Part shown: in pieces, positions 1-58,566 of the stretch
Numbering within the stretch: position 1 is the stretch's first letter
Layout: each line of letters starts with the position of its first letter
DNA from: Candidatus Microgenomates bacterium
GTDB taxonomy: Bacteria > Patescibacteriota > JACPGU01
Direction of reading: 5' to 3'
DNA: 64,000 nt
Assembly (NCBI GenBank): GCA_016188915.1
Contig: JACPGU010000001.1
Span: forward strand, 34,111-98,110
Notes under the pieces: model-generated
What the model saw: only the letters and a program-made list of their open reading frames with translations
What the model was told of the DNA's origin: nothing
The model's database searches: none
Made by a program: the position numbers and the translations under genes

Positions 1-10
1 CTTATCCTCC

Positions 11-2767
11 GTGGACATCGCCTCTATTATCTTTGACATTGTGCGTCTATTGCTTTATGCCCTGATTATCGCTGGGTGGTTTTGGGGTTTTTTGCTATTG
101 GCTAATGCTTACAAAAAAAGACGCAAAAGATTTTGGTTAGTCAAACAAGAATATACTACTTTGTTGGTCCAAGTACCGCGCAATAATGAAAAAGGCCCAT
201 TGTCTGCTCAATTGATGTTTGCTTCTATTCACGGTATTTATAAATCGGCCAAAGAGAGACTATCCGAAGGATCTTTTCAAGAGCACATCAGCTTTGAGAT
301 AGTTTCAATGAGCAAATATATTAAATTTTATGTCTATGTGCCGACCCATCTGAAAGATTTCATAGAGGGCCAGATTTACTCTCAATACCCGACCGTGGAA
401 ATGCGCGAAGTAGATGATTATACCTTGGCTAGGAGATCAGAGGGAATGCATTTTGTCGGCACCGAATTGGCTCTGGTCAAAAATGATTACTATCCTATCA
501 AGACCTTTGTTAATTTTGAAGTAGATCCGCTAGCTGGGATTACCGGCGTTTTGTCGCAAGTAGAAGAAGATGAGCAGATTTGGGCGCAATTTTTGGTAAG
601 ACCATTGGATGATAGTTGGCAGAGGAAGGCGATCTCTTATGTTTCAGATTTGAGAGCAGGTAAAAAATCTTCTTTCGCCGGCAAAGGAGTAGGGGGAATT
701 TTTAGTTTTTTGGGTTTGGTTTTAAAGGCTTTGAGCGCGCCACCAGAACAGGGGACAGCGGCCAAACCAGTCAAATTAGCCGGACCGGTAGAGCAGGCCG
801 TCAAGGCGATTGAGGACAAATCCACCAAACTGGGCTATGAAGTAAAAATCCGTCTAGCTTTTTTGTCGGACAAAGATCCAGAATCGATGAAGATCAAAAT
901 TCAATCTATCGTGGGCGCTTTCAAACAATACAATTCTTCCAATCTTAATGGTTTTGCTCACAAGAGTACCCATATGGACGATTTTGATTTTATGAACAAA
1001 TTACAGACACGCAGTTTTGAGGAGCCAGGCTTTGTTTTGAATATTGAAGAATTAGCTTCTTTGTACCATTTGCCAACGGCAACCGTTGAGACACCGAGTA
1101 TCGTCTGGGCGGGAGCTAAAAAAGGCGAACCACCGGCAATTTTGCCACTAGAAGGAGTAGTGCCGTCAGATCAATTAACTGCCTTTGCTCAAACTAATTT
1201 TCGCAATAAGGTGGCTAATTTTGGTATCAAATTAGACGATCGTCGCCGTCATATGTATATCATTGGACAAACCGGTACAGGTAAATCCAATATGATGAAA
1301 AGCATGGTCTTGGACGACATCAGAGAGGGGAGGGGATTGGCGGTTATTGATCCGCATGGCGAATTCATTGATACGGCGTTAGACTATATTCCGGAAAATC
1401 GTATTAAAGACGTAGTGGTGATTAACCCGGGCGATAGAGAATACAGCGTTGGTTTTAATTTGTTGGAAAATATCGATCCGGACAGAAGGGAGATTTTAGC
1501 GTCCGGAATGATGTCTATTTTTAAAAAAATCTGGGAAAATGTCTGGTCGGCCAGGATGGAATATATTATGAAAAATATCCTCCTCGCGCTTTTGGAAACG
1601 CCGGGTTCTACTTTGCTTGGCGCGACTAAAATGTTGGTCAATGCCGAATATCGCAGAATGATCGTGGACAATATCACCGACCCTGTAGTGAAAGAATTTT
1701 GGATCGCCGAATTTGAGAATCAGCTGAAAACCAATCCCAAATTTGCCACTGAGGCGGTGGCGCCGATCCAGAACAAAATCGGTCAATTCATCGCCGTACC
1801 CTCTATCCGCAATATCATTGGTCAGCCCAAAAGCACGATTGATATTAAAGAGATTATGGATAACAAAAAAATCCTTTTGGTCAAAATTTCCAAAGGCGAG
1901 ATCGGCGATGACAATATGGCGCTTTTGGGAGCAATGTTGATCACCAAAATACAGCTAACAGCGATGGAAAGATCAGGGACGAGAGAAGAAGAGATGCAAG
2001 ATTTTTATCTCTATGTTGATGAATTCCAAAATTTTGCCACCAGCTCTTTCGCCACTATTTTGTCTGAAGCGAGAAAATACAAATTGAACCTGATTATCGC
2101 CCACCAGTATATCGCTCAAATGACGCAGGAGGTTAGAGACGCGGTGATAGGCAATGCCGGCACAGTGGTGGCTTTTCGTGTCGGTCCGGACGACGCGCCT
2201 ATTTTGAAAAAAGTTTTTGAGCCAGTTTTTGACGAAAACGACCTTTTGAATTTGAGCAATTTTCATATTTATATCAAATTGATGATTGACAATACGGTCA
2301 ATCCGGCTTTTTCAGCTATTACCTTACCCTATACGCGCAATCAAAAGCCCGAGGGTAATCGACAGGCTATTCTAGAGCGCTCCCGCCATAATTTTGCGAT
2401 TAATAGGGGAGTGGTAGAGCAAGCGATTCTGACTTGGAGCCAGCAGATGGCAGAGTTGGAAGAAAGCGCGAAAAAATTAGGTAAAAAAGGTAAAAAAGAA
2501 AATAGGGAAGAGGGAGAAACAAAAATAATCGGCGACATAGCTTATCGTGAGATTAAAGACAAAAAAGGCGGTATCTGGTATGTTAGAAAAGATAAAATTG
2601 GTGATAACGCGAATACGGAAGAGGGGAGTAGGGGGCACGAGGGTATTCGTGATATAAAAATAGCAGAGAATGAAATCGCGGAAGATATGATTTTAACAAA
2701 AAGCGATGGCAGCAATAACAGGGTAGGGGAGGAGGCTTTGACGCCCGGGCAGACGGTGGAATTGTAA
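11..2767 (+). CDS. Membrane-anchored P-loop ATPase of the VirB4/TraG (T4SS) - HerA/DUF87 superfamily, paralog 1. The N-terminus may be truncated by the window edge or start at GTG 11.
   Basis: 918-aa ORF with an N-terminal hydrophobic segment. Walker A is IIGQTGTGKSNMM followed by VIDPHGE; Walker B-like is LYVDEFQNF, then ARKYKLNLIIAHQ. Homologous to ORF 6307..8814 (shared ELAS(L/I)(Y/F)H(L/F)P...TPSIVW block). Confidence 0.6.
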   Translation: MDIASIIFDIVRLLLYALIIAGWFWGFLLLANAYKKRRKRFWLVKQEYTTLLVQVPRNNEKGPLSAQLMFASIHGIYKSAKERLSEGSFQEHISFEIVSMSKYIKFYVYVPTHLKDFIEGQIYSQYPTVEMREVDDYTLARRSEGMHFVGTELALVKNDYYPIKTFVNFEVDPLAGITGVLSQVEEDEQIWAQFLVRPLDDSWQRKAISYVSDLRAGKKSSFAGKGVGGIFSFLGLVLKALSAPPEQGTAAKPVKLAGPVEQAVKAIEDKSTKLGYEVKIRLAFLSDKDPESMKIKIQSIVGAFKQYNSSNLNGFAHKSTHMDDFDFMNKLQTRSFEEPGFVLNIEELASLYHLPTATVETPSIVWAGAKKGEPPAILPLEGVVPSDQLTAFAQTNFRNKVANFGIKLDDRRRHMYIIGQTGTGKSNMMKSMVLDDIREGRGLAVIDPHGEFIDTALDYIPENRIKDVVVINPGDREYSVGFNLLENIDPDRREILASGMMSIFKKIWENVWSARMEYIMKNILLALLETPGSTLLGATKMLVNAEYRRMIVDNITDPVVKEFWIAEFENQLKTNPKFATEAVAPIQNKIGQFIAVPSIRNIIGQPKSTIDIKEIMDNKKILLVKISKGEIGDDNMALLGAMLITKIQLTAMERSGTREEEMQDFYLYVDEFQNFATSSFATILSEARKYKLNLIIAHQYIAQMTQEVRDAVIGNAGTVVAFRVGPDDAPILKKVFEPVFDENDLLNLSNFHIYIKLMIDNTVNPAFSAITLPYTRNQKPEGNRQAILERSRHNFAINRGVVEQAILTWSQQMAELEESAKKLGKKGKKENREEGETKIIGDIAYREIKDKKGGIWYVRKDKIGDNANTEEGSRGHEGIRDIKIAENEIAEDMILTKSDGSNNRVGEEALTPGQTVEL

Positions 2768-2841
2768 GTCTATAAAGTGCTGTAAAGCGTTTGTGTACGC
2801 ACCTAAAAAATTGGTGAAATAAAAAGAAAAGGAGAAGAGTC

Positions 2842-2955
2842 GATGAAATGGATCATTGGAGGAATTATTATTCTTGCAGTGCTTGCAGTGCTTGCAGTGG
2901 GCATTATCTGGGCAATTAGTAAAATAGTCTGCGAAATGGCCGGTTGCAACGACTG
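2842..2955 (+). CDS. Tiny hydrophobic membrane peptide (37 aa) MKWIIGGIIILAVLAVLAVGIIWAISKIVCEMAGCND.
   Basis: Strong RBS (aaaggagaag, 7 nt upstream of ATG). Single TM helix with a (cttgcagtg)x3 tandem nucleotide repeat; C-terminal CxxxxC. Sits immediately 3' of ATPase paralog 1. Confidence 0.35.
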
Positions 2956-2980
2956 AATAAAAAAGGAGGGAGAAGATTGT

Positions 2981-3103
2981 GATGAATATAGTTTTATCGT
3001 CGGTCTTAGTGGTTGTGCTTCTCTTTTTTTCTCTGGAGAATAATGGCGTGATTTTTCGCTTTCCAAAATCTATACGACCTATAAGTCACGGCCGTGAGTT
3101 ATA
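2981..3103 (+). CDS. Tiny hydrophobic peptide (40 aa) MNIVLSSVLVVVLLFFSLENNG...; the 3' end runs into palindrome A.
   Basis: RBS aaaaaggaggga upstream of ATG 2981 (alternative GTG 2978). Hydrophobic N-terminal helix. Confidence 0.3.
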
Positions 3104-3112
3104 GGTCGTATA
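3071..3112. promoter_or_regulatory. 42-bp near-perfect palindrome TATACGACCTATAAGTCACG-GC-CGTGAGTTATAGGTCGTATA (palindrome A), operator-like.
   Basis: Read directly from the sequence. The arm CGTGAGTTATAGGT is shared with the palindrome at 14669..14698. Confidence 0.5.
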
Positions 3113-3282
3113 CAAAAGGAATGCCTGTGTCGATTGACTGGGCATTTTTTGTTTGAGAAAGGTGGTGGTTGTCATGTCGGTTTTTACTTTCGGCAACATT
3201 GTGATATAATTTTGAACAGGTTCTAGGGGAGTCTGCCCCTTAACTTGTTGGAAACCGAAAACGAAAAAAAGGAGAGACAGCC

Positions 3283-3762
3283 GTGGCGAAAATCCTTCGT
3301 GTTACAGGATTCTTTTTTCAGAAAGGAATAAGGCTTGGCTTTGGGTTTGACGATGATGGAGAAAGGATCCCAGGTGTGGTGGCGTTGATAACCGCCACGG
3401 AATTTTTAGGCGCAATTTATATTTCCGAAGAGGAAGCAGGAGGAGATTTGTTTGACATCTTGGAGCATGGCAGGGGTCGCAATGAGCCCGGCGTTGATGC
3501 TTCTAGCCTTTCGGAGATTAAACTGACGGACGAGGAGTTCTCCTTCGTCAAGACATATAAAGACGGAAAGCCCCCGGTTCAGTACTCTTACCGCAAACAC
3601 CCAGACAGCAATGACAAGGTCAGTCCCTGGAAAGGGGAGTGGGTGATAGAAGCCGATGACGAGAGCGGAGAAGAGCGAGGCCCCACCAACTGCATGCTCG
3701 TGGAAATGCCGGAGTGGCTCTACGAGGCGCCAAAAGACTACGACTGGCCGGAGGGCGCATAG
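3283..3762 (+). CDS. Hypothetical acidic protein (159 aa).
   Basis: ORF with RBS aaaaaaaggagagacagcc before a GTG start. Upstream TGaTATAAT extended -10 at ~3199-3207. No recognisable domain. Confidence 0.45.
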   Translation: MAKILRVTGFFFQKGIRLGFGFDDDGERIPGVVALITATEFLGAIYISEEEAGGDLFDILEHGRGRNEPGVDASSLSEIKLTDEEFSFVKTYKDGKPPVQYSYRKHPDSNDKVSPWKGEWVIEADDESGEERGPTNCMLVEMPEWLYEAPKDYDWPEGA

Positions 3763-3798
3763 CAGATCTTTCTTGACTAAACTGAAAGGAGAGAGGGC

Positions 3799-4179
3799 AT
3801 GAAAATAGTTAAGTTTTTCTGGGTGCGATCAATGGCGAATGGGAAGGCGAAGGTATACCCCGCCGATCCAAAAGACTATGGCAAGACTTACCCCAGAACG
3901 GCCGTCGAATTCCGGGGCAAAGAGTCTTTTTTGAATGTTGGTTCTGGGATGAGAAGGATTGTGACAATAGATCACCGCGATAGAATATTTGTCGAAAAAG
4001 ATTCCAGTCCAGGGATCTATGGCAGTTTTGGAGTGATACTGCCAATCAAAAGAGGGTTAACTAAAAGGCAGATTGTCAGTAAAATTCTCAAAAAGTGGGA
4101 AGCCGAGGCCAGGGAAGGCATGGAATACAAAGACGGAGTCATGAGGGAAAGAATTTTCAGGGTGGAGGTGACGCTTTAA
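3799..4179 (+). CDS. Hypothetical protein (126 aa).
   Basis: ORF with RBS aaaggagagagggc before ATG. Followed by a double-hairpin terminator. Confidence 0.5.
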   Translation: MKIVKFFWVRSMANGKAKVYPADPKDYGKTYPRTAVEFRGKESFLNVGSGMRRIVTIDHRDRIFVEKDSSPGIYGSFGVILPIKRGLTKRQIVSKILKKWEAEAREGMEYKDGVMRERIFRVEVTL

Positions 4180-4188
4180 TTTTTCCGT

Positions 4189-4233
4189 CCGGGTTTTGCC
4201 CGGATTAACGGGGCCGCAAGGCCCTTTTGTTTT
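4189..4233 (+). terminator. Rho-independent terminator: two GC hairpins (ccgggttttgcccgg; gggccgcaaggccc) followed by a T-run.
   Basis: Stem-loops followed by TTTTGTTTT. Confidence 0.6.
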
Positions 4234-4585
4234 ACCTCTATTTTTTACCATTAAGCCTAAGCCTGCTTTCGCAAATCCCCAAGAGCAAACTTATAGGAAA
4301 TTTATTCGACCGCTAATTCACGATCGTGAGATAGAGGTCGAAAATAGTAAATACCTATCGAGGAAACGAGGAAGGCAGAACGAACATCGTTTGAGCTTAA
4401 TGTTTTAGCCTGGTAAGTGTAGGGAAGGCCGGGGCTTAGTATATTAAAGGATGCCCAAACGTCAGATATCTTTTAAGGGTAATTGTGAAGATTATCTTTC
4501 TAATCTGGTGTATCAGGTTAGGAATAGGGCTATAAGCCCGTAAAAGGGGATATGCCTTTTTATTTTACCCTGTAAAACCTTGACA

Positions 4586-4600
4586 TTATGCTAAAATATG
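4586..4600 (+). promoter_or_regulatory. Candidate extended -10 promoter (aTGcTAAAATat), adjacent to a TTGACA hexamer.
   Basis: TGnTAAAAT motif. The same tatgctaaaatat string occurs upstream of the small gene at 49312. Confidence 0.25.
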
Positions 4601-4893
4601 TTGCAATATGCAAACCTGTCAATGGCAAATAATGGCTAAATAGAGCCAAAGATAGGAGAGGGGAGGGGGGAAATAAGAAAATAAAAAAATAAGAAATTAA
4701 GAAACTAAATGAGTAGGGAATACGAGGCTAGAGATGTCGCACAAGATACCTTTTGCGACATAGGGTGGGGGCTAAACCTGAAACAGAGCCTTTCTCCTTT
4801 GACTATCATCTCGTTTGTTGTTCAGTAGTGTTTTTTATTCAAGCTCCCCTACCCTATGTCGCAAAAGGTCAATCTGATTGGCGATACGGATCC

Positions 4894-4931
4894 GATGTCC
4901 GACATCTGGGCATCCTTTGATGTCGGACATC
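4894..4931. promoter_or_regulatory. Two copies of the 13-bp palindrome GATGTC(C/G)GACATC separated by 12 bp; operator-like tandem site.
   Basis: Read directly from the sequence; center-to-center spacing is 25 bp. Confidence 0.4.
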
Positions 4932-5103
4932 TTTAAATTCGCCAGTCCCCTACTTTTTATTAATTTATTCGCAAAAATTAGCTTAAATCAGGTATAATTT
5001 ACAATTTCCCATTTAAATGCCCCAGGATGTGTTTTTTGTGTCAAAGTGGGGCAAGACTACCTTTTTTACCCAAAAATAACAGTGGTAGTGGCGTAAAGAC
5101 CTC

Positions 5104-5140
5104 AAAAAACCACCCCTAGATATTTCGGAGTGGTTTTTTG
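5104..5140 (-). terminator. Bidirectional rho-independent terminator (aaaaaaccac...gtggtttttt) ending the minus-strand operon 8814->5193.
   Basis: 9-bp stem with a 17-nt loop, flanked by an A-run and a T-run. Confidence 0.6.
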
Positions 5141-5192
5141 ATACATATCCTTACTTTTTTAATTTTTTACTTTCTTATTTTCTTAGCCAGGG

Positions 5193-5735
5193 CTATTCTT
5201 CAATCGCGGCGCTTTCAATAGCGGCCCAAGAAGATTCTTCGTCGGCGGGAATGGCAATAGTGACGGAATCGCCTGGTTTCAAACGATAATAAGTGACCGA
5301 AGCCAACAGAACCTTGTAGGATTTACTGCCGGCTAATACTTTGTATTGATTGTCTTCAAAAAGCAGTGAGCCAACTAATCTTTTTCTTTCTATGGGTTTG
5401 ATTTGTTTGTAGACGAAAGATCCATCATCTTCAATGGTCAATTTCAAGATGTCTCCTGGAACAAATTTGGATTTACTGGCGTAATTGGCCGGCACGGGAT
5501 ATTTCTTTTTGTCTGGGCCCATCATCATTTCACCGTCAAAAACACCTTCTATCATTTTGCCCTCCGACAAGATATTCAAATCAGCGGCTTTCTGGGCTAG
5601 ATTAATGCTTTTTAGCTTTTTTGTTTTTCCGCCAGATTCGCTGTTCAAAAGTTGCATCGCTGAACGGATTTGCGCTTCAGCCGATTCTAGCAGATGTCGC
5701 ACAATATCGAGATTGTTTTGTTCTTCTTTTGACAT
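5193..5735 (-). CDS. Hypothetical protein (180 aa), last gene of the ATPase-pilin operon.
   Basis: Long ORF co-directional with and closely spaced to the pilin-like gene. No recognisable domain. Confidence 0.5.
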   Translation of the reverse strand: MSKEEQNNLDIVRHLLESAEAQIRSAMQLLNSESGGKTKKLKSINLAQKAADLNILSEGKMIEGVFDGEMMMGPDKKKYPVPANYASKSKFVPGDILKLTIEDDGSFVYKQIKPIERKRLVGSLLFEDNQYKVLAGSKSYKVLLASVTYYRLKPGDSVTIAIPADEESSWAAIESAAIEE

Positions 5736-5842
5736 GGCTTTGTCTGTTTTTATGGTATTTTTTTGAAATATGTGGCTATACTAACACAAAATATAAAACA
5801 AGGCAAGAGTTTTATCCTGCTCTCCCCTACCCTGTTTGAGAA

Positions 5843-6226
5843 TTAGGGCGCTGAAGAAAGAATTTTTTTTATAAAACTCATCAAGGCCCAAGAAAAAAAC
5901 GTAAAAAGCCCGCCGACTATGGCTGCGGTCAGGGCTTTTTTGGCTGTTTCTACTTTTTTAGGATCACCGCCAGAAGTAGTGTAAAGAAAACCAGCCACAA
6001 TAATCATTATAGTCATAATAAGGCCGGTTGCCCAAGCGATATAATTGATGCCACGCCGCAAAAAACAGAAGACAAGAGAACGCCCATCAATATTTGGGTC
6101 GGAACAGATATTAGTAATAGTATCCAAATTGTTAGGGTCTGCCTCTTGTGCCAGAACTACCAATGGCAGACTCCAGGTTAGCCAGCCGGCAATTATTGTC
6201 CAAAAATGAGAAATATTTTTTAGCAT
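5843..6226 (-). CDS. VirB2/TrbC-like pilin candidate (signal peptide plus two hydrophobic helices).
   Basis: 127 aa. N-terminal signal-like segment ending ...VVLAQEA. Two TM helices separated by a short GGDPKK loop. Immediately downstream of the VirB4-like ATPase on the same strand. Confidence 0.45.
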   Translation of the reverse strand: MLKNISHFWTIIAGWLTWSLPLVVLAQEADPNNLDTITNICSDPNIDGRSLVFCFLRRGINYIAWATGLIMTIMIIVAGFLYTTSGGDPKKVETAKKALTAAIVGGLFTFFSWALMSFIKKILSSAP

Positions 6227-6306
6227 ATAATCTTTAACTATTAATTTTTATCCGCTCTAACCTTCTCCAATTCCCCACTCTTCACTTTCCACTTTCCACT
6301 AATATA

Positions 6307-8814
6307 TTACGCTCTATCCCGAATCTCTTCTTCCACGATATTACGATCTCGGCCATATTGCAAGCGCGATAAACCGATGATAGCTTCGGCTATTTTGGGA
6401 TTTTTTTCTATTTTAGAAAAATCCAAAAAAGTGTTCAAGGAAAAAGGTCGCAAATTGGTATTGTCTACCAAAAGGCTCAAATAAGCATTACCACTTTCCA
6501 GATTGGCGATGTCATAAGCATTGAAAACAGGTTCGTATTTTTTTTGTAAAAATTCGGCATCTTCTTCTCCTACTCGAAAAGTGATGAAGGTGCCAACGTT
6601 GCCAAAGACAGCGTCTTTTATCTTGGTATCCCCTCCTTTGCTTATCAGTTGATTGATAAATTGATGGCCGATAGTAAGAGCTAGCTGATATTTTCTGGCT
6701 TCAGATAAAATAGAAGCCACGGAATCAGTCGTAAAGTTTTGAAATTCGTCAATATAGAGGTAAAATGGTTTGCGGTTTTGCTCCGGCATATCTACTCTGC
6801 TCATAGCGGCCAGATATATTTTGCTGACCATAATCAGACCCAGAAGATAGGCGTTCATCTCCCCTATTTGGCCTTTGGCGAGTCGTAAAATTAATATTTT
6901 TTGATTATCCATCACCTCGCGCAAATTAAAAGCGCTTTTTTGTTGGGCGATCATCGGACGCATAATATCATTGGCGATAAATTGTGTGAGCTTGGAAGTA
7001 ATATAGGGCACAATATTAGCCAGGGCCGCTTCTCCACCAGCTTTTTCTGCTTCTTTAAGCCAATAATTTTTTATTATTGGATTGGCACAATGCGACAATT
7101 TCATCATCCGAAAATCTTCATCAGACAAAACACGAGGGATCTCCATAATAGTCGAGCCACTTTCGGGGTGCTCCATCACCAGCAAGGCCGCGTTCCTGAA
7201 ATATTGCTCAAACATTGGTCCACCCGTGGAACGCAAATCGTATAATTTATCAAAAACATTCATCAATTCATTCAAGACCAAAGTTTTCTCTTCTGGTCTG
7301 GTATATTCCAGTAAATTTATGCCGATTGGCCTCTCAAAATCGGCTGGATTAAAAAGAATAACATCCCCTACCCTTTCTTTCGGTATGCGTAAAAGAATGT
7401 CATCGGCATCAGTGCCGTGTGGATCTATGTAGCATAGCCCCTGGCCATTTTTTATATCTTGAATGATCATTTCTTTCATCAGAGTTGATTTGCCGCTACC
7501 AGTTTTGCCCACGATATAGGTATGGCGAACACGATCTTTGGGGCGCATATAGACGGGCGTCCTCAATCCGCGATAAATATTGACACCCAGATAAAGACCT
7601 TCTTTCGGTGTCTCCGGCGGAGCCGCTGCTCTTTTGGACAAAAGCCAAACGATAGAGGGTGTATCTGTATAGCGGTTGGGAAAATGGAAAATAGAGGCTA
7701 ATTCTTCGGTATTTAGAATATTTTTCTCCGCCGAATATGGAAAGGCGCGAAAAACGAAATTTTCAGCCACTATTTTGCTAGTTTGTTTTTTATTAGGTGT
7801 AAAAAAATTACCCGAAGGATGGCGGAAAACAGAAAAAGCGCTGACGATATTATTCAAATGCATTTTGGCCAAAGCTTCTTGGTCGGAAGAGACGACAACG
7901 CGGACTAAAGCCTCAAAACCGACAAAGGCGGCTTTTTCGCCAATCATTTTTATTTTTTGTTCAGTAATAGGGGTAATGGTTTTGGTTTTTTCCGCTTCTT
8001 TTTTGGCCACTTCTTCTGTTTTGAAAGGAGCAGCAGCCAATTCACCTCCTAGTTTGCTGGTAGATTCAGCGATTTTAACCCAATCAATTTTTCCTCCGGG
8101 TCCTCCCCTGCCTTCTTGCAGAGAGTGAATATAATGCTCAGAAATCTTCTGCCATTTTGTTTTCGTGGGACGAATCAATATTTGAACGGCTGCCGCTTCT
8201 TCTGGGCCTAGCTTGAACAAAGTATTGGTGATGGTGTTGAGCGGATCGGTCTCAAATTCTTTGTAGGTTTTGATAGGCATAGCTACTGACTGGCCAAGAG
8301 TTAATTCACTGGCGGCATATTTATCGTCATCTTGAAAGATATTATGGCGTTCTGTTTCTTCCAAAACAGCATCAGGGTAAAAGCTATGGATTTGTTTTTC
8401 TACCAAGGTCAATAATTCTTTTGGTAAAGCGATATAGAAAAATATCTCGCCTTTTTGTGAAACTATTTCAAAAGAAATGTGTGGAGATTTTTCGTGCCAC
8501 CAATTTTTTATTTTGGTATCGCAAACGCTGTATAGCGAAGAAAACATTTGACTAGCGCGGGAGAGCAATTCTTTGTGGTCTTTTTTGGATTCTTCTTCCT
8601 CGCGGGAAGATTTTTTAGGTAACATTATTTTAAGCAAAACCATGTCCAGAGCGCGTGGGATTTTTTTGCTTTGATAGCGTAAATAACGATAAGTATTGAT
8701 TAGCAAGATGGCTGTCAGAATTACAATAGTAATAACGACTAGCCAATACAAAAAATAAAGCAAATTGGTGGCAAGATCTGCTCCTTGGTAGATTGAATTG
8801 TCGACGTATTCCAT
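6307..8814 (-). CDS. Membrane-anchored P-loop ATPase of the VirB4/TraG (T4SS) - HerA/DUF87 superfamily, paralog 2.
   Basis: 835 aa. N-terminal TM segment. Walker A is IVGKTGSGKSTLM followed by YIDPHGT; Walker B-like is LYIDEFQNF, then ARKYQLALTIGHQ. Collinear homology to ORF 11..2767. Confidence 0.65.
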   Translation of the reverse strand: MEYVDNSIYQGADLATNLLYFLYWLVVITIVILTAILLINTYRYLRYQSKKIPRALDMVLLKIMLPKKSSREEEESKKDHKELLSRASQMFSSLYSVCDTKIKNWWHEKSPHISFEIVSQKGEIFFYIALPKELLTLVEKQIHSFYPDAVLEETERHNIFQDDDKYAASELTLGQSVAMPIKTYKEFETDPLNTITNTLFKLGPEEAAAVQILIRPTKTKWQKISEHYIHSLQEGRGGPGGKIDWVKIAESTSKLGGELAAAPFKTEEVAKKEAEKTKTITPITEQKIKMIGEKAAFVGFEALVRVVVSSDQEALAKMHLNNIVSAFSVFRHPSGNFFTPNKKQTSKIVAENFVFRAFPYSAEKNILNTEELASIFHFPNRYTDTPSIVWLLSKRAAAPPETPKEGLYLGVNIYRGLRTPVYMRPKDRVRHTYIVGKTGSGKSTLMKEMIIQDIKNGQGLCYIDPHGTDADDILLRIPKERVGDVILFNPADFERPIGINLLEYTRPEEKTLVLNELMNVFDKLYDLRSTGGPMFEQYFRNAALLVMEHPESGSTIMEIPRVLSDEDFRMMKLSHCANPIIKNYWLKEAEKAGGEAALANIVPYITSKLTQFIANDIMRPMIAQQKSAFNLREVMDNQKILILRLAKGQIGEMNAYLLGLIMVSKIYLAAMSRVDMPEQNRKPFYLYIDEFQNFTTDSVASILSEARKYQLALTIGHQFINQLISKGGDTKIKDAVFGNVGTFITFRVGEEDAEFLQKKYEPVFNAYDIANLESGNAYLSLLVDNTNLRPFSLNTFLDFSKIEKNPKIAEAIIGLSRLQYGRDRNIVEEEIRDRA

Positions 8815-9073
8815 TTTGTTTTTTGTTTTGCAATCTTTGTTTTACTTTATCATAATTTGTTTTGTCAGGCAAACAAAATACCCCGGCCTCTTTTAAGGGA
8901 CCAGGGCGGAAATAGGCGCTTTTTGTTATTGTCGATTGCGCCGATCAATCGCTTCCAGGCGAGTCGCTGTCTTCCTGAAATTAAATCCAGAAAGGCAAAA
9001 CTGAACCAAGAAGCGAAAGAGGAAATTAGCAATTTTCATAATTTGGCCACCTTCCTTGGCGTAAAGATTACTT

Positions 9074-9940
9074 TTAGAGTTCTCCTTCAGAAAAAGCGCG
9101 GAGGAGATCAAATTGCTCCAAGACGATCTCTTCCATCAAGGCCTGCTCTGCGTCGCTCAAAAAATACGGCAGAAAGGGGCGACTTTCCAGGAAATTAAAT
9201 CGCAGGCTCATCGTTCTTATGTCCATTCCTCTGGCCCAAGGAAAGGAGGGTCTCTCGCGAAAAGACTGCATTCGTCGTCGGTACCATGGTTCGGAATGAC
9301 GATCCTGCTTTTTTTCTTCAAATAACGGGATGACTTCGCCTCTTTCCTTGGCTTTTTCCCTGATGGCCCAGAGAACGCCACGCGCTTTTTCCACTGAATC
9401 GCCCAAGGAGTATTCGGGCTCAAAATTGGGCATAACCGGAATAATATGTTCGGCGAAATCAGCCGCTTCGTACGAATTGTAAAAAGGAATGCTGTCGTAA
9501 TATTCGGCTGAAAAATCCTCGGTGCCGTCAAAAAAATTATGAATGGCCGCTTCGAAAATTTCAGCTTGCGGGATATTTTCGCCGAAGGCAAACGAGCGAT
9601 GCAGGGCGAAGGGTTCGTCGTTGGTGCCGGCGCCGAGCAAGACCAAATGGGCGTGACGATCGACCTCTCCGGAATCGTTTTTCTGTAGCTCGCTTCTCTG
9701 ATAGACATAGATGATGCTGTACTTGGTATGATCCAAGGTGCGACGGGCGATATTGCAGAAAAAGCGCACTGTTTCCACGGGGAGGGCGGTATTCTTCTCG
9801 TTCTCTTTGACCTGGCAGGAACGATCATGAGGGATTGTGACGATCATCTCCATGTCAAAAACGCGATCTTCAGCTTTGGCCGGGCTTGCTCCGACCAAAA
9901 TCAGCAGAAACAGAAGCGACAACCATTTGGGGGTTTTCAT
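9074..9940 (-). CDS. Secreted hypothetical protein (signal peptide MKTPKWLSLLFLLILVGASPAKA); locally GC-rich.
   Basis: 288-aa ORF with a signal peptide. The internally overlapping same-strand ORF 9217..9828 is judged spurious. Confidence 0.5.
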   Translation of the reverse strand: MKTPKWLSLLFLLILVGASPAKAEDRVFDMEMIVTIPHDRSCQVKENEKNTALPVETVRFFCNIARRTLDHTKYSIIYVYQRSELQKNDSGEVDRHAHLVLLGAGTNDEPFALHRSFAFGENIPQAEIFEAAIHNFFDGTEDFSAEYYDSIPFYNSYEAADFAEHIIPVMPNFEPEYSLGDSVEKARGVLWAIREKAKERGEVIPLFEEKKQDRHSEPWYRRRMQSFRERPSFPWARGMDIRTMSLRFNFLESRPFLPYFLSDAEQALMEEIVLEQFDLLRAFSEGEL

Positions 9941-10074
9941 GGCTTACCATCCTTTTTTGGATTTATTTGACTGTTAAAGACCACTTCAGCCTTCCTCATT
10001 ATAGCATTTTAAAAAAACGAAAGCAAAAAATATCCAGCTGGAGATTTTTCTGATTTCTTGCTACAATCTCCTCT

Positions 10075-11381
10075 ATGGTTACTAGAAAAAATAAAATCGA
10101 ACTCCTCTCCCCCGCTGGAGATTTGCCGCGACTGAAAACCGCGGTGGCTTTCGGTGCCGATGCGGTTTATTGCGGCTTGCCCCAATGGAGTCTGCGCAAT
10201 ATCCGCGAGATTCAATTCAACGAGGAAACTATCCGCGAAGGTGTCACCTTCGCGCACGAGCGTGGAGTGAAAGTCTATGTTACCTGCAATATCTTTCCGC
10301 ACGAAAGCCATATCAAATTGCTAAAAAAAGATCTGGCAAAATTGAACAAGATCGGTTTTGACGGGATTATTCTCTCTGATATCGGTATGCTTTCTTTGGC
10401 AAAAGAATTTGCTCCGGATATTCCGATTCATCTCTCAACTCAAGCCAATACGACGAATTCCGAAGCGATAAAAATGTGGCAAGTTTTGGGCGTGAAAAGA
10501 GTAATTTTGGCGCGGGAGCTATCTCTCTTAGAAATCAAAAAAATCCACGAAGCCGTGCCGGACATAGAGCTGGAAATCTTTGTCCATGGTGCGATGTGTA
10601 TGGCGTATTCCGGGCGTTGTTTGCTATCCAAACATTATACCGGTCGCGATGCCAATCTGGGCGATTGCGCGAATTCCTGTCGATGGAAATATCAAGTAAA
10701 GAACAAGGCACCGGAAAAAGTTTTCGTGCAAGAAGAAAGTCGGCCGGATGACGCGCTGGAAATTTCGGAAGATGAGCACGGGACTTATTTTATGAATGCC
10801 AAAGACCTTTCCGCCTTGGATATTTTAGACCAAGTGCTGGATAGTGGCGTGGTCTCGGTGAAAATTGAAGGGCGGGCCAAAAGCATTTATTATGTCGGTA
10901 TGATTACGCGCCTTTACCGGCAAGCGTTAGATAGCCTTTACGCCGGTAAAAAAGTGGATGAGAAACTTTTTGCGGAATTGGATATGGTGGCCAATCGTGG
11001 TTACAACCACGGCTTTTTACTCGGTCGCGATGGCTATGAGCAAGAATACGATGTGGCGGCGATCAAACCAAATCTTGATTTCTTGGGACAAGTGTCGGAA
11101 GTTCAAGATTCAAAGTTTAAAAATTATGATATTAAAAATTCTTTAAAAATTACAAAATTAAAAATTAAAAATTACGTTCTTGTCGAGGTAAAAAATAAAT
11201 TTGCCGTGGGTGATGAGGTGGAAATAGTGACGCCGGACCAAATCGTTAAAACAAAAATTACCGAGATTTTTGATAATGGCAGTTTGGTTTCCGAGATCAA
11301 AAAACCCGGTGAAATGGTGGAAGTTTCCTTTGCTATAGGCGAAGGCGTTCCCCCCTACTCTCTAATCAGAAGGAAGAAAAA

Positions 11382-11385
<4 letters not shown>
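10075..11385 (+). CDS. Peptidase U32 family protein (collagenase-like; YhbU/RlhA family).
   Basis: ELLSPAGD...GADAVYCG...AHERGVKVYVT...FVHGAMC motifs typical of U32. Carries an in-frame KFKNYDIKNSLKITKLKIKNY insert from an AAAATT array. A TACAAT -10 lies 7 nt upstream of the ATG (possibly leaderless). Confidence 0.8.
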
Positions 11386-12780
<1,395 letters not shown>

Positions 12781-14586: not shown

Positions 14587-14668
14587 AATGAATTTTTAAT
14601 GATAAACATAATCCAATTATAGCATATACTTTTCTAATTTCTAAGACGATGTCATCTTAAGACACATG

Positions 14669-14698
14669 ACCTATAACTCACGACCGTGAGTTATAGGT
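14669..14698. promoter_or_regulatory. Palindrome B: ACCTATAACTCACG-AC-CGTGAGTTATAGGT, about 80 nt upstream of the cupin gene start. Same family as palindrome A.
   Basis: Perfect 14-bp arms; shares CGTGAGTTATAGGT with 3071..3112. Confidence 0.5.
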
Positions 14699-14756
14699 TA
14701 TGTGAGATGCTAAGAGCAGCTAGTTTGAGCAAGGAACTCCTTTTCGCCAAACAAAA

Positions 14757-14790
14757 AACCGCCCGAATGGGACGGTTTGGGTTGACGAGA
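14757..14790 (-). terminator. Rho-independent terminator (minus strand) after the tandem-repeat protein gene.
   Basis: On the minus strand ccgtcccattcgggcgg is followed by TTTTTTGTTT. Confidence 0.45.
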
Positions 14791-14805: not shown

Positions 14806-15393
14806 TCAACTCTCCAATGCTTCCTCCCACCCTTTGATGATTTCTTCCAAGAGAGGCCTCACTTTCTCGCATTTCAGAGCTTCTTGGAATATCTTGATGG
14901 CGTCAGAGTCTCCCTCACGCACCAGATCCTTCAGGATATCAATGGCGTGGCGGTTCCCCTCTCTCACCAGATCCTTCAAGATCTTGATGGCATCATGGTC
15001 TCCCTCACGCATCAGATCCTTCAGGATATCAATGGCGTGGCGGTTCCCCTCTCTCACCAGATCCTGCAAGACCTTAGCGGCGATGAAGTTCCCCTCATTC
15101 ACCAGATCCTTCAAGATCTTGATGGCATCATGGTCTCCCTCACGCACCAGATCCTTCAGGATCTCGATGGCGCTGGAGTATCCATCATGCACCAGATCCT
15201 TCAGGTTATCAATGGCGTGAGGGTCTCCTGTCCGCACCAAGCTCTTCAAGACCCCGGTGGCGCGGAGGTCTTCTTTGCGCACTTGTTTTACCAGGTCCGC
15301 TATTTCTATTTCTTCTTCCCTCCTCTTGGATGCAAAACGTTCGAGAAGGGCATCAAGCCGTTCTTGTAAAGCCACCAGCAGTTCATTTGACAT
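14806..15393 (-). CDS. Tandem-repeat alpha-helical protein: about 8 copies of the 15-aa unit AI(D/K)ILKDLVREG(D/N)(H/R)(H/D), giving a 45/90-nt DNA period.
   Basis: G-rich RBS (aagggggggggaaagactg) before ATG 15393; terminator downstream. The antisense ORF 14686..15369 is also open but lacks start signals. Confidence 0.55.
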   Translation of the reverse strand: MSNELLVALQERLDALLERFASKRREEEIEIADLVKQVRKEDLRATGVLKSLVRTGDPHAIDNLKDLVHDGYSSAIEILKDLVREGDHDAIKILKDLVNEGNFIAAKVLQDLVREGNRHAIDILKDLMREGDHDAIKILKDLVREGNRHAIDILKDLVREGDSDAIKIFQEALKCEKVRPLLEEIIKGWEEALES

Positions 15394-15528
15394 CAGTCTT
15401 TCCCCCCCCCTTAGCCCTTTTATCAAGGAACAGTATTTCCCGATAATATATCGAGATATTGGCATTATGCTAAAAAACCCTAATATTAGCAAATAGTTAT
15501 GTTGTTTCTTGACCTATAGAAACTACTC

Positions 15529-16031: not shown

Positions 16032-16096
16032 CCCACGCCTTTGGCGGGGTCCCGCCTACTATTTTATTCTCAAAAAGATGTGGCGGGATAATTTTG
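16032..16096 (-). repeat. Copy 1 of the ~65-nt conserved core element, located in the rplJ-rplL spacer and flanked by AAAATT arrays.
   Basis: About 85-98% identical to 34252..34316 (same strand) and to 51235..51298 (reverse complement). Contains mutually exclusive GC stems: ggcggg/cccgcc/ggcggg. Confidence 0.8.
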
Positions 16097-16173
16097 TAAA
16101 TAAATCTTAATTTTTAAAAATTGAAAATTTAAACATTATTTAAAAATTCAAAAATTAAAAATTGAAAAATTTC

Positions 16174-16692
16174 TCAAACCTGTTTTTCCGAAACTGCCTT
16201 CAAAACATACACCAGTCTTTGGGCAAAATTGTTCATTGCGCCAGCGAAATTATTCCCCGGAGCTTTGACGACCCACAAGAGCTTGGTAAGCAATTCTTCT
16301 TTGTTTGGCAGGTCAGCCAAGGCCTCCATTTCTTCACGATTCAAGAATCGACCTTCATAAAATCCACCGAGGATTTTGATGTTTTCATTTTTCTTGCCGG
16401 CTTTCTTGACTTCTTTCGCGACCGAGACTTCGTCTTGATTGGAATACGCCAAGGCTAGAGACTCTCCACCGACGATTTCTTGGAGTTTTTCTTTGTCGCC
16501 AAAAGCCAATCCCGCCAGAGAAACTTTGGTGACAGTGAATTTCCCGCCTTTGCTTCTCAAAGTTTTTCTCAAGGAATCCAAATCTTCCATCTTCATTCCT
16601 CGATAATCGGTGAAAGTGATGGCTTTGGCGCCGGCAATCTGCTCTTTGATTTTCTCCAGATCTGATTGTTTTTGGAGTTTACTTTTCGGCAT
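16174..16692 (-). CDS. rplJ: 50S ribosomal protein L10.
   Basis: L10 family sequence; start MPKSKL with RBS aaaggaaaaag (ORF track start 16743). Confidence 0.85.
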   Translation of the reverse strand: MPKSKLQKQSDLEKIKEQIAGAKAITFTDYRGMKMEDLDSLRKTLRSKGGKFTVTKVSLAGLAFGDKEKLQEIVGGESLALAYSNQDEVSVAKEVKKAGKKNENIKILGGFYEGRFLNREEMEALADLPNKEELLTKLLWVVKAPGNNFAGAMNNFAQRLVYVLKAVSEKQV

Positions 16693-21126: not shown

Positions 21127-21276
21127 AATGTTGTATAATTTTTAATTCTTAATTTTTTAATTTTTAAATAATGTCCTAAATCTTAATTTTTAAACTCAAA
21201 CGCTTTTGTATTCGTTTAGAAATTAGAAAATTGAGATTTATTTAAAAATTAAAAATTACAAAATTTAAAAATTTGA

Positions 21277-24193: not shown

Positions 24194-27100
24194 CTATCTT
24201 TTTAAGGCAACAATAATATTCTGACTATCTATTATTTCTTCTTTTTTAATATCAAAATCTTTTACTTTCGTCAAATTGATTTCAGAAAGTTTAGTTTGCT
24301 CTTTTATTTTATCAATAAAGGAATCGAAAACGCCACGAATTTCTTCGCTTTCTGTTTCGATATAGGCCTCCACTTTTTCGTCAAAGTCGTAACGCGCCTC
24401 TTTGCGCGCGTCTTGGATGAGGCGCGTTATTTCGCGCATCAGGCCTTCTTTTTTGAGTTCTGGGGTGATTTCTGTATTTAGGGCGATTGATACTCCCCCA
24501 TCTTCTTTCTCGGCCCAGTTGTCATCGGGGGACAAAGTGTGCTTTGTCTCTAAAGAAACAGATTTGACATTCAATTCATCGCTAATAATGTTTAATAGTT
24601 CAATCTGCAATTTACAATTTACAATTTGCAATTCCCCCAACGGTTGCCTCACCTTAATCCCTTTTTCTTTACGCAAGGCGTGTCCCAACTCCACTATTTT
24701 TTTCACCATTTCCATTTCTTTTCCCAGCTTTTCGTCAATCAATTTTTCATCAAAAGAAGGGAAAGAGGCCAAATGCACCGACTCTTCTCCCATCAGGTTG
24801 CGATAGATTTCTTCGGAGACAAAAGGAGCAAAAGGAGCCAAAAGTTTGGTTATATCGAGCAATGTTTCGTAAAGAACAGCCAAGAAATTGTCGTCCGTCC
24901 TTTTTTTGTTATTGCGCACATACCAAGTGGAAAGTTCTATCGTGAATTCCTCGATGGCGCGAGAAGAAGTGAAAACATCATATTTATCCAAGCTTTCACT
25001 CACTTTTTTGATGAGGCGATTTTTCTTGGAAAGTAGCCAGCGATCAAAAAGAGGTCCCGAGGTCTCGCCTCCGGTGCTCCCGAGGCGAGACCTCGGGGTG
25101 AACTCTCGTGTACTTGCGTAGCCAACAAAGAAAGAGTAAGTGTTCCAGAGGATCAAAAGAAATCTCCTCACTTGATCGCGGACAGAATCTTCGTTCATTA
25201 ATTTGGACTCCCCCGGTTGATTGGCGGTATAGAAAAACCAACGGATAGCGTCGTAGCCATGACTATCACTTAGCTGAACAGGATCTAGAGAATTACCTCG
25301 AGATTTGCTCATCTTTTGCCCCTTGGCATCCAGTACTAGGCCGTTGGAAATGACATTTTTATACGCTGGGCCAAGTTCTAGGATGGTGGAAACAGCCAGC
25401 AGAGTATAGAACCAACCTCGTGTCTGGTCTTGGCCCTCGGCGATGAAATCGGCGGGGAAAAATTTCTTCTCGTCAATTTTTTCCTTATTTTCAAAAGGAT
25501 AATGCCATTGGGCGAAGGGCATACTGCCAGAATCCAACCAGCAGTCAGCGACTTCCGGAGTTCTCGTCATCTCTCCCCCGCATTCGCATTGTAATTTCAG
25601 GCGATCAATAAAAGGTTTGTGGAGATCTATAGATTTTTCATCCGCGAAGACTTCGGAGAAATTGACAGCTTTTTCTTTCAATTCCTCTATACTACCAATA
25701 CAAATAGTCCTTCCGCAACTTTTAGAATTTAGAGTTTCGGATTTAGAGTTTTTAGTTTGGCATTGCCAAAACGGTAACGGCGTTCCCCAATATCTGTCAC
25801 GCGAGATAGCCCAATCCCTGACTCCTTCTAGCCATTCGCCGAAACGACCGTCTTTCATGTGAGCCGGTATCCAATTGACTCGCGCGTTATTTTTTTTCAA
25901 TTTTTCTTTCAATTTACTCATGGCGATAAACCACGAATCTTTAGCGTAGTAGAGCAGAGCCGTGTCGCACCGCCAGCAAAAAGGGTAGTCGTGTTCGTAT
26001 AGTAGTGGCTCGCCAAACAAACCACTAGTTCCAGCGTCACCTTGCTTTTTTAAGTAATCAACGATTATTTTTTCAGTTTCTTTGTCTTTCGCAAGACGGT
26101 TCTCGAGTTCCTCTAAAATTTGATAGCTAGAAGCATAACCGCTTGGAAATGTAAACCTGCCATTCTCGTCTACTGTGTGTACTTTGGGGAGATCAACTAG
26201 TTCTCCCAGAAAATAATCTTCTTCACCATACATAACAGCAGCGTGCACCACTCCTGTACCATCTTCTGCAGTAACAAAGTCTGCTGAGTAAATCCTAAAG
26301 GCATTCTCATATCCTCCTACTTCTGGAGATATCGAGTTGAAGAGCTTTTCATATTCAAGATCTAGATCTTTACCAAGCATTTTAAACGAGAAATTCGTAG
26401 TTTTTAGCACAGCTTCAGCTCTAGAGGCAGCCACAATAAAAGTTTCATCTCCTATCTTTACGGTGCCATATTCTATATTTGAACCAACTGCTAAAGCGAC
26501 ATTACCTGGTAGCGTCCATGGTGTTGTTGTCCATGATAAGATAAAAGTTTTATCGTCTGTGACAGGAGAATCTGTCATTTTAGGATTAAGCAACTGACCT
26601 TTCTTTACCTTAAATTTCACATACACCGAATTTTCCGTCACCTTCTTATACCCCTGCGCTACTTCATGAGAGGAAAGCGCGGTACCGCAACGCGGACAAT
26701 ACGGGACGACTTTGTGTCCTTTGTAAATTAACTCTTTACGGAAGGCCTCCGATAGGATCCACCAGACGGATTCAATATAATTATTATCATAAGTGATGTA
26801 GGGGCGTTCCAAATCCAGCCAAAATCCCATTCTTCGGGTACTTTGTTCCCAGTCCGTTTTGTACTCCCAGACGCTATTTTTGCATTGCTCGTTGAAATCG
26901 GCGATACTTTCTTCGGGGTTCTTTTTCAATGTTTCAATCTGGGGTTTGCCGGAAATATTGAGCTTTTTTTCCACCTCCAGCTCTACCGGCAGACCATGCG
27001 TGTCCCAACCAGCTTTGCGTTCTACTCGGAATCCTTGCATTGTCTTGTAGCGCAAGAAAACGTCTTTCAGCGCGCGAGAGAAAATATGATGAATCCCAGG

Positions 27101-27256
27101 CCTCCCGTTGGCCGTTGGTGGCCCTTCAAAAAAAATAAAATCACCCTTGGGCGACTCTTTGGCCAAAGTTTTTTCAAATATTTTTTCCTTTTCCCAAAAA
27201 GACAGTATCTCTTCTTCTAGTTTGGGAAAAGATTGGCGCGGATCTACTTTTTTCAT
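24194..27256 (-). CDS. ileS: Isoleucyl-tRNA synthetase.
   Basis: PPTANGRPGIHH (HIGH region), KMSKSRGN (KMSKS), editing and zinc-binding regions; 1020 aa. Confidence 0.9.
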   Translation of the reverse strand: MKKVDPRQSFPKLEEEILSFWEKEKIFEKTLAKESPKGDFIFFEGPPTANGRPGIHHIFSRALKDVFLRYKTMQGFRVERKAGWDTHGLPVELEVEKKLNISGKPQIETLKKNPEESIADFNEQCKNSVWEYKTDWEQSTRRMGFWLDLERPYITYDNNYIESVWWILSEAFRKELIYKGHKVVPYCPRCGTALSSHEVAQGYKKVTENSVYVKFKVKKGQLLNPKMTDSPVTDDKTFILSWTTTPWTLPGNVALAVGSNIEYGTVKIGDETFIVAASRAEAVLKTTNFSFKMLGKDLDLEYEKLFNSISPEVGGYENAFRIYSADFVTAEDGTGVVHAAVMYGEEDYFLGELVDLPKVHTVDENGRFTFPSGYASSYQILEELENRLAKDKETEKIIVDYLKKQGDAGTSGLFGEPLLYEHDYPFCWRCDTALLYYAKDSWFIAMSKLKEKLKKNNARVNWIPAHMKDGRFGEWLEGVRDWAISRDRYWGTPLPFWQCQTKNSKSETLNSKSCGRTICIGSIEELKEKAVNFSEVFADEKSIDLHKPFIDRLKLQCECGGEMTRTPEVADCWLDSGSMPFAQWHYPFENKEKIDEKKFFPADFIAEGQDQTRGWFYTLLAVSTILELGPAYKNVISNGLVLDAKGQKMSKSRGNSLDPVQLSDSHGYDAIRWFFYTANQPGESKLMNEDSVRDQVRRFLLILWNTYSFFVGYASTREFTPRSRLGSTGGETSGPLFDRWLLSKKNRLIKKVSESLDKYDVFTSSRAIEEFTIELSTWYVRNNKKRTDDNFLAVLYETLLDITKLLAPFAPFVSEEIYRNLMGEESVHLASFPSFDEKLIDEKLGKEMEMVKKIVELGHALRKEKGIKVRQPLGELQIVNCKLQIELLNIISDELNVKSVSLETKHTLSPDDNWAEKEDGGVSIALNTEITPELKKEGLMREITRLIQDARKEARYDFDEKVEAYIETESEEIRGVFDSFIDKIKEQTKLSEINLTKVKDFDIKKEEIIDSQNIIVALKR
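25056..25097. repeat. Perfect 16-bp inverted repeat (cccgaggtctcgcctc...gaggcgagacctcggg) inserted in frame in ileS (encodes PRSRLGSTGGETSGPL).
   Basis: Read directly from the sequence. GC-rich, in contrast to the surrounding CDS. Confidence 0.6.
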
Positions 27257-58473: not shown

Positions 58474-58566
58474 TTTTTATAATTTTTAATTTTGTAATTT
58501 TTGAAATAATTCCTTAATTTCTAATGTTTAAAAATTAGGATTTAAGGCTTATTTAAAAATTAAAAA

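Follow-up and report, generated by a model that had tools for sequence, protein, structure and literature searches.

Palindromes with a common CG-NN-CG centre in a Candidatus Microgenomates genome and in other bacteria of the Candidate Phyla Radiation, where they flank a PaaX_M/Cas2-like gene

The controlling inverted repeat of chaperone expression (CIRCE) is a fixed sequence of 9-9-9 layout, found in chaperone operons after the promoter and before the start codon, where it serves as a DNA site and potential hairpin. The REPtron, an arrangement of repetitive extragenic palindromic (REP) elements, is recognised by two copies placed one on each side of a conserved gene, and the hix and gix crossover sites have a 12-2-12 geometry. 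PaaX, known from phenylacetate catabolism in Escherichia coli and Pseudomonas, is autoregulated in E. coli, where its site reads TGATTC-N27-GAATCA, and its Cas2-like domain is a dimerisation motif (PMC9493321). The subject of this report is a set of palindromes with a CG-NN-CG centre in a 64-kb stretch of contig JACPGU010000001.1 from a Candidatus Microgenomates bacterium (the window, 64,000 nucleotides analysed at full length), together with their counterparts in other genomes of the Candidate Phyla Radiation (CPR, or Patescibacteria).

Three palindromes, for which strand is not applicable, were located in the window:

S1, 3071..3112: TATACGACCTATAAGTCACGG followed directly by CCGTGAGTTATAGGTCGTATA, 21+21 nt, arms 3071-3091 and 3092-3112.
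S2, 14663..14704: CACATGACCTATAACTCACG AC CGTGAGTTATAGGTTATGTG, 20-2-20, arms 14663-14682 and 14685-14704.
S3, 4305..4342: TTCGACCGCTAATTCACG AT CGTGAGATAGAGGTCGAA, 18-2-18, a degenerate third copy.

S1 and S2 are near-perfect palindromes built on the common scaffold GACCTATAAnTCACG-NN-CGTGAnTTATAGGTC, and share the core GACCTATAA(G/C)TCACG-NN-CGTGAGTTATAGG(T/C). The centre of S1 reads CG-GC-CG and its single mismatch is a G/G at position 6 from the centre; the single mismatch of S2 is a G/T, and its sequence is identical between two independent Logan assemblies (L001, L002). S3 has three mismatches, or two plus one G-T pair, and carries a compensated C-G pair at position 10. An initial annotation of this DNA had described two palindromes with 14-bp arms in a 14-2-14 arrangement; both exist, the first at 3071-3112 and the second extending to 14663-14704, and their shared core is as described, although the arms are in fact 20-21 bp long and S3 had been overlooked. 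The third partial copy that it placed at 15511 is a chance 8-mer, GACCTATA, which is also present at 50511; since about one copy is expected and two were found, occurrences of this 8-mer outside the palindromes are near chance level.

In the 64 kb there are exactly three occurrences of the 12-mer pattern TCACGNNCGTGA, and no more when one mismatch is allowed; the form TAA-N4-CG-N2-CG-N4-TTA has two matches in the window against 0.085 expected from shuffles. These motif statistics, along with recurrence in other genomes, rule out a chance palindrome: the motif is a real, sequence-specific, two-fold symmetric element. Past the conserved core the palindromes continue into flanks that differ between copies yet remain complementary (TATAC/GTATA in S1, CACAT/ATGTG in S2), whereas beyond about ±21 nt the flanks are dissimilar. 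This excludes an origin of the copies as parts of a longer dispersed repeat, one of the two outcomes that the initial annotation had itself named as fatal to its reading. A miniature inverted-repeat transposable element (MITE) with target-site duplications was likewise rejected, the flanks being unrelated and the outer flanks being inverted rather than direct repeats; nor was there any match in viral_contigs or among the PLSDB plasmids that would point to a viral or plasmid origin.

The motif was then found in other CPR genomes by pattern scans, one of genomes (one per species) and one of metagenomes, both requiring near-exact cores, so that all copy numbers given here are lower bounds. Nearly the same 32-bp core was present at non-homologous loci in Microgenomates, in the CAYHEQ01 'Candidatus Saccharibacteria' metagenome-assembled genome (MAG) and in a Parcubacteria-type contig from Hainich groundwater. 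The MAG has two copies at unrelated loci (L003, L004), both GACCTATAATTCACG-NN-CGTGAATTATAGGTC, and the Hainich contig (L005) has two copies of ATACCAATAaTTCACGATCGTGAaTTATTGGTAT, one on each side of a gene for a 183-aa protein. A looser form, TAA-N4-CG-NN-CG-N4-TTA with arms of 15-23 bp, was seen in four Parcubacteria lineages; five such sites were counted in the 20 kb of L007, against none in the Microgenomates relatives. The strict pattern, which misses diverged copies, gave no fewer than two matches in the genome_contigs records of the MAG; the 64-kb window has at least three copies and the 20 kb of L007 at least five. Judged by their sequences, the palindromes seem to form a family with a recognisable grammar in at least three CPR classes.

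Against Pfam, the 183-aa protein of L005 gave a match of 6.5e-22 to PaaX_M, which is the central, Cas2-like domain of PaaX. Its family comprises 988 homologues, and almost every one is about 183 aa long; identity among the 120 best is 52-70%. An AlphaFold model (predicted local distance difference test score, pLDDT, 86) gave E. coli PaaX (8a39) as its top Foldseek match, followed by Cas2 dimers. The protein has a Cas2-like dimerisation domain, and its N-terminal domain may be a winged helix, to judge from secondary structure. It differs from PaaX in lacking the C-terminal phenylacetyl-CoA-binding domain, and scored 23.7 against the NCBIfam PaaX equivalog, for which the cut-off is 264.5. Two features are invariant across the family (alignment A2), a QxSVF motif and Asp110 (FDIPE), the latter aligning with the catalytic Asp of Cas2 (3exc). 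Several members are labelled 'CRISPR-associated endonuclease Cas2' by NCBI; no CRISPR context was seen.

Palindromes lie on both sides of the PaaX_M gene in five of the six Parcubacteria lineages (L005/L011, L007, L017, L018, where they are weak, and L019-21). Beyond L005, five loci with family members were taken, and four of these show flanking palindromes, as follows:

L007 (Sungbacteria): 9933-9976 and 10550-10595.
L017: 9938-9981 and 10554-10595.
L018: weaker, AAGCGATCGC on each side.
L019-21: 9118-9147 and 9755-9780.

The centre of the upstream palindrome is about 40-60 nt before the start codon, and the downstream palindrome begins 0-12 nt past the stop codon regardless of the next gene, which is convergent in L018. 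In L005, the predicted -35 of the PaaX_M gene (TTGGTA-18-TATACT; here and below, promoters and terminators were called by consensus matches only) falls within a palindrome arm. Such palindromes next to a gene, overlapping its predicted -35, are the classic signature of an autoregulated DNA-binding protein.

The palindromes themselves do not fit the PaaX box. They are contiguous over 30-46 bp, in contrast to the reported TGATTC-N27-GAATCA, and no paa genes are nearby; the half-sites in the window, TAAGTC and TAACTC, match at four of six positions, and are spaced by 8 bp rather than 27. The half-site TAATTC of L003, L004 and L005 resembles the TGATTC of E. coli PaaX and is offered as a lead only. 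In the literature we found no description of these palindromes or of CPR PaaX-like proteins.

To describe the symmetry of the sites, 16 of them from seven genomes were aligned. CG at positions 1-2 and TA at positions 8-9 were invariant on both arms in all 16, and A at position 7 was present in 11. The grammar common to all the palindromes is accordingly a CG-NN-CG centre and TAA at positions 7-9, with the other positions variable but complementary; the outer blocks are lineage-specific, GACC/GGTC being kept in the window, L003 and L004. Paired cells amounted to 88.7%, compared with 62% in shuffles (none of 500 shuffles was as high), and double-change cells to 87, compared with 28.6; changes on both sides were seen in 16 of 21 pairs. 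Arm identity within a site (0.88-0.97) exceeded half-site identity between sites of the same genome (0.68-0.88), and copies c, d and e of L007 differ from one another at 7-8 positions, all compensated. Of 336 cells, G-U pairs made up only about 6, none of them on the transcribed strand. RNA structures tolerate G-U pairs. Strong covariation with almost no G-U points to Watson-Crick symmetry at the level of DNA, and not to a simple operator or an RNA structure.

Such covariation is what would be expected if the palindromes were REP-like elements, selected or propagated as single-stranded DNA hairpins or cruciforms without gene-specific regulation; the flanked PaaX_M/Cas2-like protein would then take the part of the REP-associated tyrosine transposase (RAYT), domesticated, recognising the hairpins and possibly cutting or maintaining them. 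We regard this explanation as fairly unlikely. Like REPs, the palindromes are short and extragenic, with copy-specific compensated arms that extend beyond the core into distinct complementary flanks (S1, S2), and they occupy every type of intergenic region, convergent gaps and operon gaps included; a single gene is flanked by two copies, as in a REPtron; Asp110 aligns with the Cas2 catalytic Asp; and sites are missing at orthologous positions of relatives. Unlike REPs, they appear to be low in copy number, they lack a GTAG head, and their core is shared between CPR classes, a degree of conservation not usual among species-specific REPs. Where REPs flank a gene for an HUH Y1 transposase, these palindromes flank a PaaX_M/Cas2-like gene, and no HUH/RAYT transposase was seen. 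In the L019 counterpart of a solo site of L020, moreover, the outer blocks and the CGATCG centre persist although the inner arms carry uncompensated changes, a pattern more easily explained by protein contacts than by a hairpin requirement. Finally, the Cas2-like domain of true PaaX has been described as a dimerisation motif, not a nuclease (PMC9493321).

The same pair of strains bears on a further possibility. L019 and L020 are otherwise 99.5% identical, and over about 370 bp (L019 1-441 against L020 790-1213) their identity is 85%; this stretch takes in a promoter and the 5' part of a lipoprotein-like gene, and the drop from 100% to 85% starts exactly inside the CG-NN-CG palindrome, which may be a recombination breakpoint. 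Were a site-specific recombinase to act on the palindromes, such as a serine recombinase with its cut at the central dinucleotide, each palindrome would be a crossover site at the edge of a gene cassette that can be exchanged or inverted. One such cassette, a pair of genes described below, would be enclosed by S1 and S3, and the PaaX_M gene itself would be another. The arm-2-arm arrangement around CG-NN-CG is similar to that of hix and gix, and, as at hix, gix and res site I, inverted-repeat arms surround a 2-bp centre and pairs of sites flank about 0.6-1.2 kb. Central dinucleotides match within the flanking pair in five of five lineages (AT/AT, TA/TA, GT/GT, AT/AT, AT/AT), L007b resembles a hybrid whose left arm comes from L007c and whose right arm comes from L007e, with the join at the centre, and all three window sites are within variable islands. 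The CPR arms are longer, however (15-23 bp), and no recombinase gene was found near any site or in the first 18 kb of the window. S1 and S3 could not recombine with each other because their centres, GC and AT, are incompatible; S2 is in the middle of its island and not at an edge; no inverted or excised variant was present among same-strain assemblies (L001, L002, L006, L011-13); and the matching of pair centres is only weakly significant because AT is the commonest centre. We therefore consider recombination sites an improbable explanation.

The window is chromosomal DNA with housekeeping genes, among them rplL, rplJ, ftsZ, ftsA and those for IleRS and LeuRS, and its 835-aa ATPase is 100% identical to an NCBI protein encoded on a contig of 198,983 bp. 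S1 and S3 are located between two convergent VirB4/VirD4-like ATPase genes (11-2767, plus; 6307-8814, minus), with a type IV secretion system (T4SS) pilin gene adjacent. On one side of S2 is the terminator of a HEAT-repeat gene, and on the other the promoter-like site of a cupin/phosphoribosyltransferase operon; S2 is 77 nt away from the cupin ATG (14586), in agreement with the earlier estimate of about 80 nt. The features around the sites are:

3116..3150, plus strand: terminator-like hairpin with a U run, directly after S1 (RNAfold).
3183..3210, plus strand: promoter-like site of gene 3283-3762 (TTTACT-16-TGnTATAAT), with the S1 centre 91.5 nt upstream.
3283..4179, plus strand: lineage-specific two-gene unit (159 aa and 126 aa), enclosed by S1 and S3.
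14616..14643, minus strand: promoter-like site of the cupin operon (TAGAAA-16-TGcTATAAT), with the S2 centre 40.5 nt upstream of the start of the -35 hexamer.
14756..14778, minus strand: intrinsic terminator that ends the HEAT-repeat gene and precedes S2 in the minus-strand direction.

S1 follows a tiny membrane-peptide open reading frame (ORF) at 2843-2956 (37 aa), and an uncalled 40-aa ORF (2982-3104) would end at a TAG within its right arm. S3 is about 65 nt past the terminators of gene 3799-4179, between convergent genes, and has no promoter on the plus strand. Because the terminator at 14756..14778 precedes it, S2 is probably in an untranscribed spacer.

This arrangement was weighed against the possibility that the palindromes function in transcripts, folding into RNA hairpins that might, for example, stabilise 3' ends, be processed by RNase III or terminate transcription without a U tract. 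The stems are very stable (z-scores of -4 to -8 for segments containing them), S1 belongs to the 3' part of the ATPase/peptide operon, short gaps between co-directional genes hold L007e, L007d and L005A, and the downstream flanking site, so close behind its stop codon, is placed like a terminator. Against this, S2 and S3 are probably poorly transcribed, since they come after canonical terminators and before promoters or without them; S1 has a separate terminator after it; the upstream flanking site of L005 would not be transcribed whole because it overlaps the predicted promoter; the scarcity of G-U pairs, none of them on the transcribed strand, also tells against RNA; and no U tracts follow the stems. 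A search of the whole window against Rfam returned no match at the gathering threshold, and when matches within 2700-5300 were admitted up to E of 1, the sole result was a chance miRNA match, which we rejected as a known RNA family. An RNA role is, in our estimation, very unlikely.

The closest syntenic relatives, L014-L016, were compared over 67 kb at 63-65% protein identity. They keep the gene order sigma-like, ATPase, pilin, ATPase, TGT, L12, L10, and carry different genes at both palindrome loci, the 3283-4179 unit being absent. All three window sites are thus within gene islands that differ from these relatives, and the genes flanking the palindromes are themselves lineage-specific. Comparison with related genomes, which had been proposed as a check on the motif, gave a divided result: the syntenic relatives are without sites, and the motif recurs at non-homologous CPR loci.

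The explanation we favour, tentatively and at something short of an even chance, is that S1-S3 are recognition sites of a dimeric DNA-binding protein, possibly regulatory at the cupin promoter, on a PaaX_M-type model. Conserved blocks, conservation across classes, an apparently low copy number and a flanked gene of dimer type suggest that a protein recognises a specific sequence in double-stranded or extruded DNA. S1-S3 would be part of the CPR family of CG-NN-CG-centred palindromes, read at the DNA level by a two-fold symmetric protein, dimeric or tetrameric, encoded outside the window. In Parcubacteria the likeliest binder would be the conserved 183-aa PaaX_M protein, its gene flanked on both sides by palindromes, and an orthologous or analogous protein of this Microgenomates genome would bind S1, S2 and S3. 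The simplest model would be an autoregulated PaaX_M-type protein with a few additional sites. From its position between terminator and promoter, S2 could modulate the cupin promoter; the solo site of L020, which abuts a strong promoter directly after a terminator, has the same layout. At the borders of the lineage-specific two-gene island, S1 and S3 have the appearance of orphan or decaying sites. The near-perfect, copy-specific self-complementarity of the palindromes may, we infer, be a by-product of intrastrand template switching in replication, which would perfect and extend long quasi-palindromes.

Several observations weigh against this explanation. Copies that are more self-complementary than alike, with compensated changes, are atypical of operators and typical of hairpin-selected elements. 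Centre-to-nearest -35 distances across sites were 10.5, 19.5, 40.5, 79.5, 91.5 and 184.5 nt; with a span of 10.5-184.5 nt, there is no fixed operator geometry. S1 is in a 3' region, with a terminator-like hairpin intervening in the 91.5 nt between its centre and the -35, and S3, L007a (181-214) and the downstream site of L018 are between convergent genes, all of them positions in which one would not look for a promoter. The genes neighbouring the sites have no functional theme in common, and the 67 kb of L014-L016 contain no CG-NN-CG palindromes, contrary to what an operator would lead one to expect. With a profile hidden Markov model, no PaaX_M homologue was found in the window and 2 kb further left (about 66 kb), and none was found in L003, L004 or L014-16. 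In Tagabacteria (L008-10), the PaaX_M gene is flanked not by a palindrome but by a 21-nt direct repeat, GCTGGAGCGGGTAAGTGTTGA, and a CG-NN-CG palindrome is found elsewhere in the L008 locus (4346-4377). The direct repeat, at 9947-9969 and 10577-10597 in L008 and also present in L009 and L010, ends in a -35-like TTGA.

These points qualify what the initial annotation had made of the two sites. Its dimeric helix-turn-helix repressor site is borne out by two-fold symmetric half-sites and recurrence in CPR, and lacks a consistent operator position; its common regulon of the ATPase locus and the cupin gene reduces to a shared cis element, given inconsistent promoter distances and no functional theme. 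Nor did a candidate regulator encoded nearby emerge, as had been supposed, in the window or the 2 kb to its left: Pfam scans of the ten genes around the sites and of ten further small proteins revealed no DNA-binding regulator in the window, the cupin gave a weak Pfam match to an AraC-type ligand-binding domain, and in L006 no candidate regulator was found. A tblastn hint of a PaaX_M homologue at 16549-16587 was discarded, as it maps within rplJ.

A bolder combination of these elements can also be drawn, which we hold to be unlikely. The CG-NN-CG palindromes and the PaaX_M/Cas2-like protein would together form a CPR element-protein system analogous to REP/RAYT, in which the protein recognises the palindromes as hairpins or cruciforms and possibly nicks or recombines them through the Cas2 catalytic Asp, so that the palindromes would mark accessory islands, such as the pair of genes between S1 and S3 and the island around S2, and promote their exchange.

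Other described palindromes and hairpins were compared and rejected. The sites are fully symmetric, without bulges and without R boxes (RYYYAAC / GTTRRRY) at the stem base, and no integrase is present in any locus, which excludes integron attC. Intrinsic terminators are excluded by the missing U tracts and by the separate canonical terminators after S1 and before S2 and S3. The hairpins are single and fully paired, have no TGATGA/CTGA boxes and are accompanied by no Tas/Nop gene, unlike the TIGR stem-loop arrays of TIGR-Tas. The LexA/SOS box of Patescibacteria is reported as a direct repeat, and no SOS genes are nearby. CIRCE, the site of HrcA, shares long conserved inverted repeats and few copies per genome with the CPR palindromes, but neither its 9-9-9 layout nor its chaperone-operon position nor its fixed sequence applies to them. 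The palindromes are not members of the PaaX box, REP/RAYT, attC, hix-type, intrinsic terminator or TIGR classes; they are probably a palindromic protein-recognition element, with something more unusual as a minority possibility.

The ATPase genes on either side of S1 and S3 (11-2767, 6307-8814), which are convergent, paralogous and of DUF8128/TrwB type, form a conserved CPR cluster with the T4SS pilin gene (5843-6226) and, upstream, a sigma70_r4+HARE-HTH protein (L006 571-1674); the segment between the two ATPases is wholly different among relatives. The two-gene unit at 3283-4179 had no Pfam, NCBIfam or PADLOC match, which sets aside a defence system or other known function for its two genes; of their products, the 126-aa one is an ORFan and the 159-aa one has only six weak homologues among 1.8 billion representatives. 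S3 opens a stretch of about 850 nt (4343-5190) without ORFs of at least 60 aa, between convergent genes, which holds nested inverted repeats: A/T-rich arms of 31-38 nt (4671-4719 and 5148-5185), arms of 24 nt that are 96% complementary (4748-4771 and 4846-4869), and perfect arms of 13 nt (4894-4906 and 4919-4931). AAATAAGA is repeated there in tandem with an 8-nt period (4671-4710). The stretch has no Rfam match, and may represent either what is left of a MITE-like element or a structured RNA that has escaped annotation. Next to S2, the HEAT-repeat gene (14806-15492) encodes a 228-aa protein with internal tandem repeats. Its HEAT_2 score of 26.1 bits narrowly misses the cut-off set by Pfam, 27.7, and NCBIfam gave a marginal match to 'Lacto_palin_RPT'; a counterpart is absent from relatives.

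On the scale of the window, cumulative GC skew peaks at about 10-12 kb, and genes are oriented plus at 11-4179, then mostly minus at 5193-49000; the skew peak and orientation switch (1-12000) resemble a replication terminus, and S1-S3 are all within or just past this zone (3-15 kb). Mutually similar A/T-rich intergenic blocks, made of AAAATT/AATTTTTAAAA-type units with many overlapping inverted repeats, were noted at 16037-16165, 21170-21265, 58471-58537 and 59452-59563, one of them between rplJ and rplL. Two long palindromes are inside coding sequence, which is unusual for essential genes: one in the LeuRS gene (55707-58214) at 57016-57056, with perfect 19-nt arms (TTCCATTGATTTTTTGCAA-TTG-TTGCAAAAAATCAATGGAA), and one in the IleRS gene (24194-27256) at 25056-25097, with 19-nt arms that are 95% complementary.

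For the window, the message is modest: two loci have a common cis element, and their shared regulation is a hypothesis. Almost nothing is known of gene regulation or genome dynamics in CPR/Patescibacteria, which have very few transcription factors and are hard to culture, and in Parcubacteria the PaaX_M-like protein and its flanking palindromes provide a concrete, testable pair. If this protein is a regulator, it would possibly be one of the few global regulators in CPR; if it serves in hairpin maintenance or cassette exchange, it would represent a new kind of genome-plasticity system.

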